Below, one piece after another: positions 2,686 through 14,683 of a DNA stretch of 64,000 nucleotides (position 1 is the stretch's first letter; the number at the start of each line of letters is the position of its first letter). Origin of the DNA: Candidatus Poribacteria bacterium (GTDB lineage Bacteria; Poribacteria; WGA-4E; JAJDTR01); NCBI GenBank assembly GCA_965204085.1, contig CBDBEE010000002.1:840913-904912 (forward strand), given 5' to 3'. The notes beneath the pieces were generated by a model. It did no database searches. It saw nothing but the letters and a program-made list of their open reading frames with translations, and was not told the DNA's origin. A program made the translations under genes and the position numbers.

Positions 2686-3282
2686 CTATTCTTTCGGGCG
2701 GAGGGTTGCGGACACAATTTTATCATTCTGCTCAATTTTGTCTAATACTTCAAGTCCGTTGACAACTCGCCCAAAGATGGTGTGTGGTTCGTCGGTCTCT
2801 AGAGTGTCAAGACAGATATAAAACTCGGACGCATGAGATTCTGCGCCATCTCCTGCCATTGCAACCGCCCCTCTTTTATATTGCTGATTGCTCGTCTCCA
2901 ACGGCATGGTTTCATTTAGCCGTGCGGAGCCTGCTTGGATGAGTTGACCTGCCTCGACACGATGAAAGGGTTCATCATCGTAGAATTTCAGCCGCACGTT
3001 CTTAGCGAAGTTTTTAGCCGTTTGGGGGGCATCGTCGGCATAAAACTCTATCTCAATATCTCCTTTGTCGGTCTTGAGAAGAGCCGTGAGATTCCGAACA
3101 TCAGCCTGTTGCGGTTTTTCTTGTGGAGCTGATTGAACTCTAGTCGTACGCGCTCTGGGCTTCGGCGCTTCTTTCCGCTCCTGTGTGCAGCCCGTCAAGA
3201 ATAGTGGAGCTATAAACACAATGACACAAATGACAGAAAGGTAGATTGTACCGCTCGTGTGTTTGCTATTCAGATTTGACAT
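2686..3282 (-). CDS. peptidyl-prolyl cis-trans isomerase, cyclophilin type, lipoprotein
   Basis: Signal peptide with LTGC lipobox. Cyclophilin motifs FHRV, GAVAMAG and EFYICL are present. Confidence 0.85.
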   Translation of the reverse strand: MSNLNSKHTSGTIYLSVICVIVFIAPLFLTGCTQERKEAPKPRARTTRVQSAPQEKPQQADVRNLTALLKTDKGDIEIEFYADDAPQTAKNFAKNVRLKFYDDEPFHRVEAGQLIQAGSARLNETMPLETSNQQYKRGAVAMAGDGAESHASEFYICLDTLETDEPHTIFGRVVNGLEVLDKIEQNDKIVSATLRPKE

Positions 3283-3844
3283 ATTCTGATCTCGCCTCCA
3301 ATTTTACGGTCTTCATTACATCGCCGACTCTAAGTTTGTCGACGACATCCATGCCTTTAATCACTTGCCCAAATGTTGTGTACCGACCGTCGAGAAATGA
3401 CTGTGGTTTCAGACAGATGTAGAACTGACTCCCCGCGGAATTCGGTGCACCTGTTCGTGCCATCGCAACTGTTCCTCTGAGATGGGGACGTTGATTCGGG
3501 TTGGTATACTCATCAATGATGGTATAACCGGGGCCGCCCGTGCCATCTCCGTCTGGATCACCTCCTTGAATTATACTCAAGCTCTCTGTGTTTTCCCTAC
3601 GATGAAAAGTGAGACCATCATAAAACCGTTTTCCAACCAAGTTTGTGAAATTCTCGACCGCTACCGGAGCGGAATCGGGGAAGAATTCAATTACGAATTT
3701 TCCCTGCCGAGTTTGGACCACGGCTACCTGTTCTTCCTGCTCGTCAATTGGTTCGTCGGTGGCTTTGCGGATAGCACATCCTATCAAGGCGTAGCAGGAT
3801 ATTACTACCAACATGAAACTCGCTGTCCTAAAATGTCTTTGCAT
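3266..3844 (-). CDS. peptidyl-prolyl cis-trans isomerase, cyclophilin type (tandem paralog)
   Basis: Signal peptide with IGC lipobox. Motifs FHRRE, GTVAMARTG and QFYICL are present. It overlaps the downstream paralog by 17 nt. Confidence 0.85.
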   Translation of the reverse strand: MQRHFRTASFMLVVISCYALIGCAIRKATDEPIDEQEEQVAVVQTRQGKFVIEFFPDSAPVAVENFTNLVGKRFYDGLTFHRRENTESLSIIQGGDPDGDGTGGPGYTIIDEYTNPNQRPHLRGTVAMARTGAPNSAGSQFYICLKPQSFLDGRYTTFGQVIKGMDVVDKLRVGDVMKTVKLEARSEYVKSE

Positions 3845-3901: not shown

Positions 3902-4798
3902 CTAGAGATTAACAGTGCCACCATTTTCCATTACAAGAGGGAAAACCGCACCGGTCAATTTTTCCCCGTCTGGGATGTTGACAAAAGGCTTCATTGGATG
4001 GTCGCCGTTAGCATCATATCGCGTTTCGTCTGTCATATAATGAATCCCAATTGCGCGGCGCGGATTCCCGCTCGTGTTTGCGTGGGAAGCGTGCCAAGTT
4101 AAGGAGTGGTGATAATGGACATGACCTTTACGCACAGGGCACAACTTAACCTCAATAGCATTGCCTTCAAAACTGGAAGGCATGGCATCTAACTCCTTGA
4201 CCGTATGCAAAAACTCAATTTGATTTCCCCACTGGTATGATTGCGCAGCCATGCGCATGCAACCATTTGATTCGTCAACATCATCTAAAGCGACCCATGC
4301 TGTTACCTGGCTTGTCTTTGGGCTTAAGATTGGCCAATATGGCGAGTCTTGGTGCCATGAATTGACCCCGCCTACTTCGGCAGGTTTGTACTGAATCTGA
4401 TCGTGCCAAATGCGTAGTTCCTCTGCTCCAGTCAACTGCGCAATTTCTTCAACTATTTTTGGATTATGGGCCAACTGGCGAAAGTGCTCGCTCGCTTGCC
4501 AAATATTTACTATTTGCCAGACAGGAGCCATTTCATCACGAGAGAGATTAACGATTCTCACAGGCTGCGGAACAGGTGCGTCTTGATCCTTAATCACTCG
4601 GTTAAGCTCTTCTTGCAGAACCCCAACTTCATTGGCCTCCAGAATCCTTTCGCCAAGCAGAAAACCGTTTAAGCGAAACTCCTCAACTTGAGCCTTTCTG
4701 AGCACTTCTCTCTCCTTCTGCAGATAGCATTTAACTATACTAGCACACAATTTGCGTGTGGTAAAGCAAAATCTACCGCTAGTCAAGAAAAGCCCCAT
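3902..4798 (-). CDS. phytanoyl-CoA dioxygenase (PhyH) family protein
   Basis: The WHQDSPYWP iron-binding motif is typical of PhyH-like 2OG-Fe(II) oxygenases. Confidence 0.8.
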   Translation of the reverse strand: MGLFLTSGRFCFTTRKLCASIVKCYLQKEREVLRKAQVEEFRLNGFLLGERILEANEVGVLQEELNRVIKDQDAPVPQPVRIVNLSRDEMAPVWQIVNIWQASEHFRQLAHNPKIVEEIAQLTGAEELRIWHDQIQYKPAEVGGVNSWHQDSPYWPILSPKTSQVTAWVALDDVDESNGCMRMAAQSYQWGNQIEFLHTVKELDAMPSSFEGNAIEVKLCPVRKGHVHYHHSLTWHASHANTSGNPRRAIGIHYMTDETRYDANGDHPMKPFVNIPDGEKLTGAVFPLVMENGGTVNL

Positions 4799-4807
4799 TA
4801 AAATTGG

Positions 4808-4836
4808 TTGACATTGAACTTTCAGCGAAGTATAAT
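4808..4836 (+). promoter_or_regulatory. perfect consensus sigma70 promoter, TTGACA(4808-4813)-17 nt-TATAAT(4831-4836)
   Basis: Read directly from the sequence. It lies in the divergent intergenic region and points toward trpS. Confidence 0.7.
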
Positions 4837-5005
4837 GACGAGGCTATCATCATTGCATTTTGAAGGTTGTCAACTCCCCATGTCGCATATTTGGCAGTAC
4901 AATTATGTGGACGCATCTAATACTTTGCCTTGGCGTTTTGGCTGCGGGGTGGAGGTGCGACTAGAGCATTGAAACTAAATCTATAGTTCGCAAAGCCTTC
5001 TAAAA

Positions 5006-5038
5006 GCCGCAGGTGAAACCAATGCCCGCGGCTTTTTT
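5006..5038 (+). terminator. GC-rich hairpin plus U-tract (intrinsic terminator or attenuator) inside the trpS leader
   Basis: The sequence is gccgcagg-tgaaaccaat-gcccgcggc followed by tttttt. It lies about 60 nt upstream of the trpS ATG and about 165 nt downstream of the predicted transcription start. Confidence 0.55.
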
Positions 5039-5098
5039 GTTTTCAATGAACCGAATGTACGTGGAACAGGACTAGGATTTCATGGCAAGGAGAACAAA

Positions 5099-6094
5099 AT
5101 GAATCGTATTGCTTTAACGGGTATTAAGCCAACGGGACCGCCACATATCGGTAACTACCTTGGGATGATTAAACCTGCGCTGGAATTGGCTGAGGACCAT
5201 CAAGCGCTCTATTTCTTGGCTGATTACCACGCGCTCACGACTGTGAAGGATCGAGAGCAGTTGATTCAGCTAACCTACGAGGTTGTGGCTGCGTGGATAG
5301 CTTTAGGATTAAATCCTGATGAGGTCATATTTTACCGTCAGTCAGACATCATCGAAGTATTTGAGTTGACGTGGATTCTGAACTGTTTCGCCGCTAAGGG
5401 TTTGCTCAATCGAGCACACGCATACAAAGCTGTTGTAGACGAAAATCTTAAAGCCGGACGCGATCCCGACAAGCAAATCAACATGGGGTTATTTAACTAT
5501 CCTGTGCTTATGGCCGCGGACATTTTGCTATACGGGAGCCACGTAGTCCCGGTTGGATTAGATCAGAAGCAGCATCTTGAAATGACACGGGATATTGCAA
5601 CAGCTTTTAACAAGAATTACGGCGAGATCCTAGTACTTCCTGAAGCGTCAATCAAAGAGGAGGTCATGACTATTCCGGGAACTGACGGACGCAAGATGAG
5701 TGCAAGCTACAACAACACGCTGCCTGTTTTTGCGTCTCCGAAAGAGTTGCGCAAACGAGTGATGCGGATCGTTACAGATTCCAAGCGACCGGAAGATCCG
5801 AAGGATCCAGAGTCGTGTAATGTATTTGCAATCTATCGTCATTTTGCTGCACCGAACGCCGTAGAATCTACACGGAAGCGGTATTTCCAAGGTGGTCTGG
5901 CGTATGGGGAGATTAAAGCAGAATTGTACGAATTACTAGAATCCACCTTTGGAAGCGCCCGCGAGAAATATAGCGAGTTACTGATGGATCGGGATGAAAT
6001 TGACCGAATTTTGATGAAAGGTGCAGAAGAAGCACGCGCCATTTCCATGCCGATTATTGAGAGGGTGCGTGAAGCCGTTGGAGTTGCAAAGTAG
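5099..6094 (+). CDS. trpS: tryptophan--tRNA ligase
   Basis: HIGH motif (TGPPHIGNY), KMSAS motif, 331 aa, and an AGGAG ribosome-binding site. Confidence 0.95.
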   Translation: MNRIALTGIKPTGPPHIGNYLGMIKPALELAEDHQALYFLADYHALTTVKDREQLIQLTYEVVAAWIALGLNPDEVIFYRQSDIIEVFELTWILNCFAAKGLLNRAHAYKAVVDENLKAGRDPDKQINMGLFNYPVLMAADILLYGSHVVPVGLDQKQHLEMTRDIATAFNKNYGEILVLPEASIKEEVMTIPGTDGRKMSASYNNTLPVFASPKELRKRVMRIVTDSKRPEDPKDPESCNVFAIYRHFAAPNAVESTRKRYFQGGLAYGEIKAELYELLESTFGSAREKYSELLMDRDEIDRILMKGAEEARAISMPIIERVREAVGVAK

Positions 6095-14065: not shown

Positions 14066-14094
14066 TTGACATCAGTTTAAGGGTCATCTATAAT
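14066..14094 (+). promoter_or_regulatory. perfect consensus sigma70 promoter, TTGACA-17-TATAAT
   Basis: Seen in the sequence about 290 nt upstream of the RRM protein gene. Confidence 0.6.
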
Positions 14095-14383: not shown

Positions 14384-14683
14384 ATGAATATCTACGTCGG
14401 CAATTTATCATTTGATGCGACGGACGAGGACTTGCGTGAAGTTTTTGAACAACACGGTCGGGTCGAATCCGCAAAAATTATCATGGATAGTTACAGTGGT
14501 AGGTCCAGGGGTTTTGGATTTGTCGAAATGCCCGACGAATCCGAAGGTCGAGCGGCAATTTCTGGGCTAGATGGGCAAGAATTTATGGGACGGGCATTGA
14601 GAGTGGATGAGGCTCGCCCCCGTCGACAGGGTGGAGGTGGACGAGGTGGCGGCTTCGATAGACGCGATGATGATTCTTGGTAG
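14384..14683 (+). CDS. RRM-type RNA-binding protein with Gly/Arg-rich tail
   Basis: RNP-2 (IYVGNL) and RNP-1 (RGFGFVEM) motifs are present, with a GGGGRGGG tail. A GAGGAG ribosome-binding site precedes the start. Confidence 0.9.
   Translation: MNIYVGNLSFDATDEDLREVFEQHGRVESAKIIMDSYSGRSRGFGFVEMPDESEGRAAISGLDGQEFMGRALRVDEARPRRQGGGGRGGGFDRRDDDSW

Follow-up and report, generated by a model that had tools for sequence, protein, structure and literature searches.

The gene for tryptophan--tRNA ligase, trpS, in a 64,000-nucleotide (nt) stretch of DNA from a Candidatus Poribacteria bacterium (the window, meaning the whole stretch that was analysed) is preceded by a leader in which an exact promoter, a small open reading frame (ORF) with a tryptophan codon and an intrinsic terminator follow one another, and whose transcript can fold in two mutually exclusive ways. 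The reading that we favour, with somewhat better than even confidence, is that this leader is a ribosome-mediated transcription attenuator of the classical, leader-peptide type, which would set the transcription of trpS by the supply of charged tRNA-Trp. As judged from its sequence, the element functions like known classical leaders, yet no curated family can claim it as a homologue. It is most likely a known kind of switch, a classic ribosome-sensed attenuator, that is found here in one clade of sponge-associated Poribacteria, a new phylum for the mechanism. Its parts, in order along the DNA, are the following.

4808-4836, forward strand: sigma-70 consensus promoter, with the -35 box TTGACA at 4808-4813, a 17-nt spacer and the -10 box TATAAT at 4831-4836.
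4863-4867, forward strand: GAAGG, a weak Shine-Dalgarno (SD)-like box, 12 nt 5' of the leader ATG.
4880-4972, forward strand: leader ORF of 30 codons, ending in UGA (4970-4972) and reading MSHIWQYNYVDASNTLPWRFGCGVEVRLEH.
4923-4935, forward strand: region 1, which holds the Trp-codon segment and forms the 5' strand of the 1:2 hairpin, with its partner at 4943-4954 (columns 88-100 with 108-119 of alignment A2).
4942-4963, forward strand: region 2, the 5' strands of the antiterminator helices P1 (CUGCGG, 4942-4947), P2 (GAGG, 4952-4955) and P3 (GCGACUA, 4957-4963).
4984-5012, forward strand: region 3, the antiterminator 3' strands, P3 at 4984-4991, P2 at 4997-5000 and P1 (CCGCAG) at 5007-5012.
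5002-5038, forward strand: intrinsic terminator (regions 3:4), with its 5' arm at 5002-5014, 3' arm at 5024-5036 and U-tract at 5033-5038.
5048-5059, forward strand: conserved box GAACCGAATGTA, right after the terminator and present in all core loci.
5087-6094, forward strand: trpS, the putatively regulated gene, with its ribosome-binding site (RBS) AAGGAG at 5087-5092 and a coding sequence at 5099-6094 (ATG at 5099) for a tryptophan--tRNA ligase of 331 amino acids (aa).

From these elements we infer a transcription start, translation of the leader, stalling and a regulatory outcome of the following kind. Transcription would begin at the consensus promoter, with the start predicted near 4843, and a ribosome would translate the 30-codon leader ORF, the only conserved features of which are a UGG at one or both of codons 16 and 18, its start and its approximate stop. 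With plentiful Trp-tRNA the ribosome would pass through region 2 to the UGA, and either the antiterminator 5' strands would be masked or the Trp-codon segment would re-pair with region 2 behind the ribosome. A ribosome at the stop would block the 5' strand of P3 and the edge of P2 so that the antiterminator stem could not be built, the terminator would form and a transcript of about 195 nt would be released. When Trp-tRNA is scarce the ribosome would instead stall at the UGG codons, covering region 1 and leaving region 2 free, and the local P3 hairpin would grow stepwise by P2 and then by P1 as their 3' strands emerge from the polymerase. P1 (CUGCGG:CCGCAG) would then occupy the core of the terminator 5' arm, leading to read-through by the polymerase and expression of trpS. 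In favour of this reading is the position of the cognate codons, which are present in all 16 aligned leaders, lie within the 5' strand of the 1:2 hairpin and stand upstream of the gene for the Trp-specific synthetase.

The two ends of the element are clear. The promoter agrees with the sigma-70 consensus at 12 of 12 positions, and the window holds two exact matches to TTGACA-N16-18-TATAAT where shuffled sequences lead one to expect 0.03; 17 related loci keep it as TTGACA-17/18-TA[TC]AAT, among them those of a lineage with TrpS of 79% identity. Some 170 nt separate the -10 box from the terminator, which has the form 5'-AAAAGCCGC-A-GGU / loop / GCC-C-GCGGCUUUUUU, with a core at 5006-5032 followed by T6 at 5033-5038. 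Its energy is -16.5 kcal/mol in the window and -15 to -23 kcal/mol across the aligned sequences, where 96% of cells in the stem pair, and in full-length equilibrium folds its base-pair probability is 0.99-1.00. A simple terminator scan overlooked it, the top of the stem opening into a loop of more than 8 nt. As a sequence the terminator is unremarkable: a metagenome scan with the pattern AAGCCGCAGG-N9-13-CNGCGGCTTTTTT returned more than 120 unrelated contigs (L087-L206), none of them near trpS, and the pattern is generic and alone not diagnostic of the leader. From the terminator of the window to the trpS RBS is about 49 nt. A preliminary description of this DNA had placed an exact sigma-70 consensus at 4808-4836, a GC-rich hairpin with T6 at 5006-5038 and a trpS RBS after it, and all of its coordinates proved correct. 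Its naming of the gene is upheld by matches of the product to PF00579 and to TIGR00233 (295.6 bits against a cut-off of 176.75), and homologues carry the name tryptophan--tRNA ligase; an exact-protein look-up returned no record for the TrpS sequence of the window.

The gene upstream of the leader encodes a PhyH dioxygenase and is divergent (3902-4798, opposite strand), and a consensus scan of 5039-5098, from the terminator to trpS, found no promoter-like site, although non-consensus promoters would escape such a scan. Because of these two circumstances, transcription of trpS would have to cross the terminator.

The leader ORF with its Trp codons was absent from the preliminary description. Its ATG at 4880 is invariant in the aligned sequences and its length is 30 codons in 12 of the 16, the others having 28, 27 or 32 codons and one a stop at codon 6. 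Codon 18 is UGG in 14 of them and codon 16 in 12, no sequence lacks UGG at both positions, and the usual arrangement is T-W-P-W. In the window the Trp codon is codon 18 (4931-4933), and codon 16 (4925-4927) is UUG, as against UGG in 12 of the 16. The first 15 codons diverge, with a mean identity of 59% and a minimum of 33%, and contain no frame-breaking indel; the sole indel among them, in L007, is a 6-nt deletion that keeps the frame. Single-base indels are present in the 5' untranslated region (UTR) and 3' of the leader stop codon. Of the 16 sequences, 14 have no premature stop in frame 0, 5 have none in frame 1, and all have at least one in frame 2. The ORF has no codon-position bias, which implies that the amino-acid sequence is not under selection, as expected of a leader peptide. 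Upstream of the ATG, G27, A28, G30 and G31 of the SD-like box are invariant in alignment A2, L008 having GAUGG, and roughly every second gene of the window has no SD sequence, with SD spacings of 10-13 nt occurring among those that have one.

What does the peptide itself contribute? A sequence in two independent samples (L079 and L080) has a 1-nt deletion just after W18-R19, as a result of which the C-terminal peptide is replaced (27 aa in all) and the stop lies 9 nt further upstream, while the nucleotides are still conserved. In L082 the usual stop is mutated and the peptide has 32 aa. The frameshift with the nucleotides kept shows that the conservation of 4940-4990 acts at the level of the RNA. 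On sequence grounds, then, the leader peptide is not the conserved product and not a functional small protein; a Pfam search with the 30-aa peptide gave no match, and a search of protein databases with a 54-aa in-frame extension that contains it gave no homologue.

These same loci bear on the possibility of a TnaC-like arrest peptide, in which free tryptophan would stall the ribosome at the stop on a C-terminal W-x12-stop motif and so alter termination. Counted from W18, the last residue is exactly 12 positions on, and the C-terminal 13 residues look conserved in most of the sequences. In TnaC, W12 stands to P24 at the same distance. The L079/L080 frameshift, which swaps this C-terminal peptide and keeps the nucleotides, led to the rejection of the idea, and the mutated stop of L082 also speaks against it; moreover, the terminator here is intrinsic rather than Rho-dependent, and induction by high tryptophan would make little sense for trpS. 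An arrest peptide is therefore very improbable.

The case for an attenuator of the ribosome-sensed type depends also on the RNA, for which structures were compared over the 16 sequences of alignment A2, with 3' partners slid along the sequence as controls for pairing. Each of the three structures, the 1:2 hairpin, the antiterminator and the terminator, can pair in 92-96% of cells, as against 29-65% with slid partners. For the 1:2 hairpin the figure is 92% against 47-55%, with energies of -8 to -21 kcal/mol, and for the nested P1-P2-P3 stem 94.5% against 29-42%. Folded locally, all 16 sequences have this nested stem (4942-5012) as their minimum-energy structure, with energies of -21 to -30 kcal/mol and z-scores against shuffles of -1.0 to -4.4; the fold check proposed in the preliminary description did yield a conserved stem that sequesters the 5' arm of the terminator. 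The 3' strand of P1 is the core of that arm, so that P1 and the terminator exclude one another, and the 1:2 hairpin in turn sequesters the 5' strands of P1 and P2. Region 2 is near-invariant in its nucleotides, even in L079 and L080, where the frameshift alters the peptide. L002 and L082 retain P3 and P1 through register-shifting substitutions, with GCGAC changed to GCAGC giving AGCUA:UAGCU, and with GCGGC pairing with GCCGC.

The geometry of the ribosome can be set against these helices. With UGG18 in the A site the leading edge would fall at about 4940-4942, and with UGG16 6 nt further upstream, whereas a ribosome at the leader stop would cover about 4955-4981, which is the 5' strand of P3 and the edge of P2. 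When ribosome masks were applied in a model of local folding, the mean probability of P1 was 0.89 with the ribosome at W16, 0.66 at W18, 0.58 with no ribosome and 0.28 with the ribosome at the stop codon, a shift in the direction that attenuation predicts. A separate observation is that 4964-4986, comprising the last two codons, the UGA and the 13 nt after it, in the apical part of P3, is near-invariant in the 16 sequences despite being loop or non-coding, and that a ribosome on the stop codon would have its footprint over the same stretch.

Two further pairings were tried and set aside. A long-range helix, P0, between the 5' UTR/SD region and the region of the stop codon is strong in one subclade, and was rejected as a general feature, its register not being conserved and covariation being absent. 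An outer extension of the 1:2 hairpin, GCAUCU:AGGUGC, has one-sided uncompensated changes that rule out its conservation.

How widely is the element distributed? The nearest trpS loci are in metagenome-assembled genomes of Poribacteria, with TrpS 88-92% identical to that of the window, and the unit of promoter, leader and terminator stands directly 5' of trpS in 18 distinct Poribacteria sequences with TrpS identities of at least 88%. The loci with the unit are L001-L009 together with L079-L086, L207 and L209, the latter in assemblies recovered through TrpS homologues. A leader profile hidden Markov model found exactly one copy per locus and none elsewhere in the 597 kb searched, and a metagenome scan with a 29-base leader pattern gave no match, although the pattern fits all known copies. 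The link between leader and trpS survives changes in the upstream neighbour, which may be PhyH, an IS1595 transposase (L083/L084) or other flanks (L001, L008, L009). At L083:421-1095 and L084:421-1095 an IS1595-family transposase and a KilA-N/BstA gene stand in place of PhyH, and the leader-trpS unit is untouched. Outside this group, a homologue with 75% TrpS identity (L078) lacks the element, and Poribacteria with 68-71% TrpS identity, like all of the non-Poribacteria compared, have a different, short upstream region. Between the two stand L075-L077, with 79% TrpS identity, from three samples of which one is from TARA Oceans. These have a near-identical promoter and terminator around a central part that cannot be aligned, in which a nested stem P1'-P2'-P3' (CUUGGG with GCCGCAGG, GAAGAUU with GGUCUUC, CAGCG with CGCUG) sequesters the same arm of the terminator. 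In this pelagic or other-habitat lineage an Arg-rich ORF of 44 codons runs through the terminator (L075:2707-3003, and also in L076 and L077).

Such exclusive linkage is relevant to the independent small RNA of about 195 nt that the preliminary description offered as its alternative. In a fuller form of that view, the unit would make an abundant RNA of this size, or the 30-aa peptide, from a gene of its own that simply adjoins trpS, and trpS would be expressed by unregulated leak-through or from an unrecognised promoter. A perfect consensus promoter and a terminator that predominates in equilibrium folds fit such a gene, and RNAs derived from attenuators can act in trans, as does rnTrpL of Sinorhizobium meliloti (PMC6614838). 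A terminated leader is expected under any attenuation model too. Against an independent gene, the unit is always immediately 5' of trpS and nowhere else, despite the rearranged upstream flanks. The lack of a promoter-like site between terminator and trpS counts further against an independent RNA, and the folding z-score of this RNA is only -1.3. For an independent peptide the drifting N-terminus, the L079 frameshift, the stop in L003 and the empty Pfam and database searches are all adverse. We regard an independent gene as distinctly unlikely.

To return to the ribosome-mediated attenuator, a number of observations weigh against it. The open-frame test is weak, a column permutation giving P = 0.07, and of 11 lineages 7 have an open frame 1. 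The SD-like GAAGG is a poor one, with a long spacing of 12 nt to the ATG. L003 (at 2739-2945) and L207, which are one species in two independent samples, have a fixed TGA at leader codon 6, so that ribosomes cannot get to the Trp codons there, and L075-L077 have no openable ORF that contains UGG, yet keep the promoter, the terminator and the nested stem; an intact leader ORF is thus not present in every lineage that has the element. No helix has two-sided compensatory covariation among the 16 sequences, in which this region is conserved too strongly for it; all changes are one-sided or wobble. When the whole leader is folded at equilibrium with the masks, a stall at W16 makes P1 clear in only 6 of the 16 sequences, P1 being blurred because pairings of the 5' UTR compete with it, and since the terminator always wins once its 3' arm is present (0.99-1.00), the decision could only be a kinetic one. 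With W18 in the A site the leading edge of the ribosome would come to lie on the first 1-2 nt of P1. Finally, the attenuator model gives no reason why the apical loop of P3 and the 13 nt that follow the stop are near-invariant.

For the species with the codon-6 stop an accommodation with the attenuation model can be offered. All RNA helices are retained in L003 and L207, and the species combines a weak 1:2 hairpin (-10.8) with a strong antiterminator (-23.3). Under that model the species would have lost Trp sensing, and because of this combination its read-through would probably be constitutive.

Several of these difficulties are met by a cis-acting terminator/antiterminator switch for trpS that has a sensor other than the ribosome, with the small ORF incidental. 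A protein such as the tryptophanyl-tRNA synthetase (TrpRS), uncharged tRNA-Trp or a small ligand would bind the RNA of 4940-4990 and stabilise or disrupt P1-P2-P3. Such a sensor would accommodate the codon-6 stop in L003 and L207 and the lack of a Trp ORF in L075-L077, where promoter, terminator and sequestering stem are all kept, as well as the near-invariance of the P3 apical loop and post-stop nucleotides, which has neither a pairing nor a coding reason, the weak open-frame statistics and the absence of codon-position bias. It would leave unexplained the invariant ATG, the constant length of 30 codons, the in-frame deletion and the conserved in-frame UGG codons, which fall exactly within region 1 and precede the gene for the Trp-specific synthetase. 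Also against it are the lack of any Rfam match, a resemblance to the T-box core that is at chance level, a UGGN that is not invariant and (G/U)AG triplets that are unlike a binding site for TRAP. By inspection of the sequence, TRAP-like (G/U)AG repeats are few and irregularly spaced, and a TRAP site was rejected on these grounds. A non-ribosome sensor is unlikely, though it is the main rival; if true, it would be a new riboswitch-like or protein-dependent class of attenuator, and an ORF-independent reading would in general mean a new class of RNA sensor. The most novel proposal, and a rather doubtful one, is that the near-invariant RNA of 4940-4990, retained even in a species with a broken leader ORF, is a new sensor domain for tRNA-Trp, TrpRS or tryptophan, and/or that the terminated leader of about 195 nt, made in abundance, serves also as a trans-acting small RNA (sRNA) in the manner of rnTrpL. 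Either, if true, would be a new RNA class in an uncultivated phylum of sponge symbionts.

A T-box riboswitch, which would sense uncharged tRNA-Trp, had been suggested for this leader together with other tRNA- or Trp-sensing riboswitches. The general layout of an attenuation leader has stood, on the strength of the linkage to trpS, the absence of a second promoter and the conserved structure that sequesters the terminator arm, but the T-box or tRNA/Trp riboswitch has not. In favour of a T-box are the position upstream of an aminoacyl-tRNA synthetase gene, the terminator with its alternative stem and the G-rich segment GGGUGGAGG. The partial match to the T-box core noted earlier is indeed present, as cgGGGUGGAGGUGCG at 4945-4959, yet GGGGUGGAGGUGCG differs from the 14-nt core at 4 of its 13 specified positions, and 26 other sites in the window match the core with three mismatches or fewer where 15.6 are expected, which places the resemblance at chance level. 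No Stem I-like element or specifier loop was found in the leader, in agreement with the earlier failure to see a convincing specifier, and the candidate for acceptor binding, a UGGN in the loop between P1 and P2, is UGGA in the window and UAGA in L001, and so is not invariant.

Covariance models point the same way. The Rfam checks that had been recommended, for T-box (RF00230), 6S RNA and leader models, came back empty. A scan of the whole 64 kb at the gathering threshold found no family, and a permissive scan of 4700-5200 (501 nt, E up to 10) found only RF_site2, STnc40 and RNAI at E values of 1.2-7, which are chance-level and unrelated. RF00230 therefore has no match in the leader region at E up to 10, and five related loci had no match to it or to any other family at E up to 1. 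Neither Trp_leader (RF00513) and the other curated leader families nor stand-alone sRNA families of similar size, such as 6S RNA (RF00013), gave a covariance-model match. The T-box reading is effectively refuted, and the presence of a leader ORF with Trp codons means that a classical leader-peptide attenuator fits better than a T-box or riboswitch. What is shared with T-boxes is the regulation of a synthetase gene through competing terminator and antiterminator helices, with a response to tRNA charging as proposed here; what differs is the lack of Stem I, specifier, core and covariance-model match, the sensing here being most likely via the translating ribosome.

Synthetase genes in the bacteria that have been studied are mostly governed by T-boxes or translational operators and rarely by leader peptides, and classical attenuation is documented mainly in Proteobacteria and Actinobacteria. 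Among the closest known systems is the trp attenuator of E. coli (trpL; RF00513), with which the present element has in common a promoter, a short ORF with Trp codons in region 1, three overlapping hairpins 1:2, 2:3 and 3:4, which are predicted ones in the present case, an intrinsic terminator and an antiterminator that is weaker than the terminator, so that here too the choice between them would be kinetic. Unlike trpL, it has no sequence or covariance-model similarity to that family, belongs to the phylum Poribacteria and would control a synthetase gene rather than a biosynthetic operon. The peptide is longer, with 30 aa against 14; its Trp codons stand singly or as W-x-W, where those of trpL are in tandem; and the antiterminator is built in three tiers, with the basal 6 bp as the only part in competition with the terminator.

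In the choice of gene the element is like pheM-pheST of E. coli and attenuators predicted in Streptomyces, where likewise a synthetase gene follows a leader peptide rich in its own cognate codons and then a terminator. The Streptomyces predictions are of classical attenuators ahead of trpS and leuS, that of trpS also with Trp codons, and pheST of the gamma-proteobacteria is an established case (PMC1262725). The sequences are unrelated to those of the Poribacteria and the phyla are distant. The attenuator-controlled TrpRS of Streptomyces is an auxiliary, antibiotic-resistant copy. In other Poribacteria a single trpS stands at this locus, and the gene described here is its ortholog, as judged from a comparison of the locus.

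A further parallel lies in rnTrpL/peTrpL of S. meliloti, an attenuator-derived RNA that acts in trans (PMC6614838, PMC7298713). By analogy, the present leader would also be a Trp attenuator from which a terminated RNA is released in quantity from a strong promoter; the trans role is demonstrated there and a speculative possibility here, and the sequences are unrelated.

If the attenuator reading is true, the control of trpS by a Trp-codon leader in the uncultivated Poribacteria would carry the mechanism into a new phylum. The leader would also offer a compact, testable part from an unculturable organism, consisting of a consensus promoter and a switch of about 200 nt. For annotation, the element could be entered as a new family of about 200 nt, since Rfam does not have it, and would then no longer be confused with an sRNA or T-box.

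Some smaller features of the locus and its surroundings remain to be described. The box GAACCGAATGTA after the terminator can pair with ACAUUC in the 5' UTR (4856-4861), with substitutions that are one-sided only, and the pairing, if formed, would enclose the whole attenuator in read-through transcripts. On the other side of the promoter, two tandem overlapping genes for cyclophilin-type peptidyl-prolyl isomerases, with N-termini that resemble signal peptides or lipoproteins, lie at 2686-3844 on the reverse strand; this pair and then the PhyH dioxygenase gene are transcribed divergently from the trpS leader promoter. Downstream of the second exact TTGACA-17-TATAAT promoter of the window, at 14066-14094 on the forward strand, come about 285 nt of untranslated leader and then a gene for a 99-aa RRM_1 RNA-binding protein (14384-14683, forward strand). 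This long leader, too, may be regulatory.

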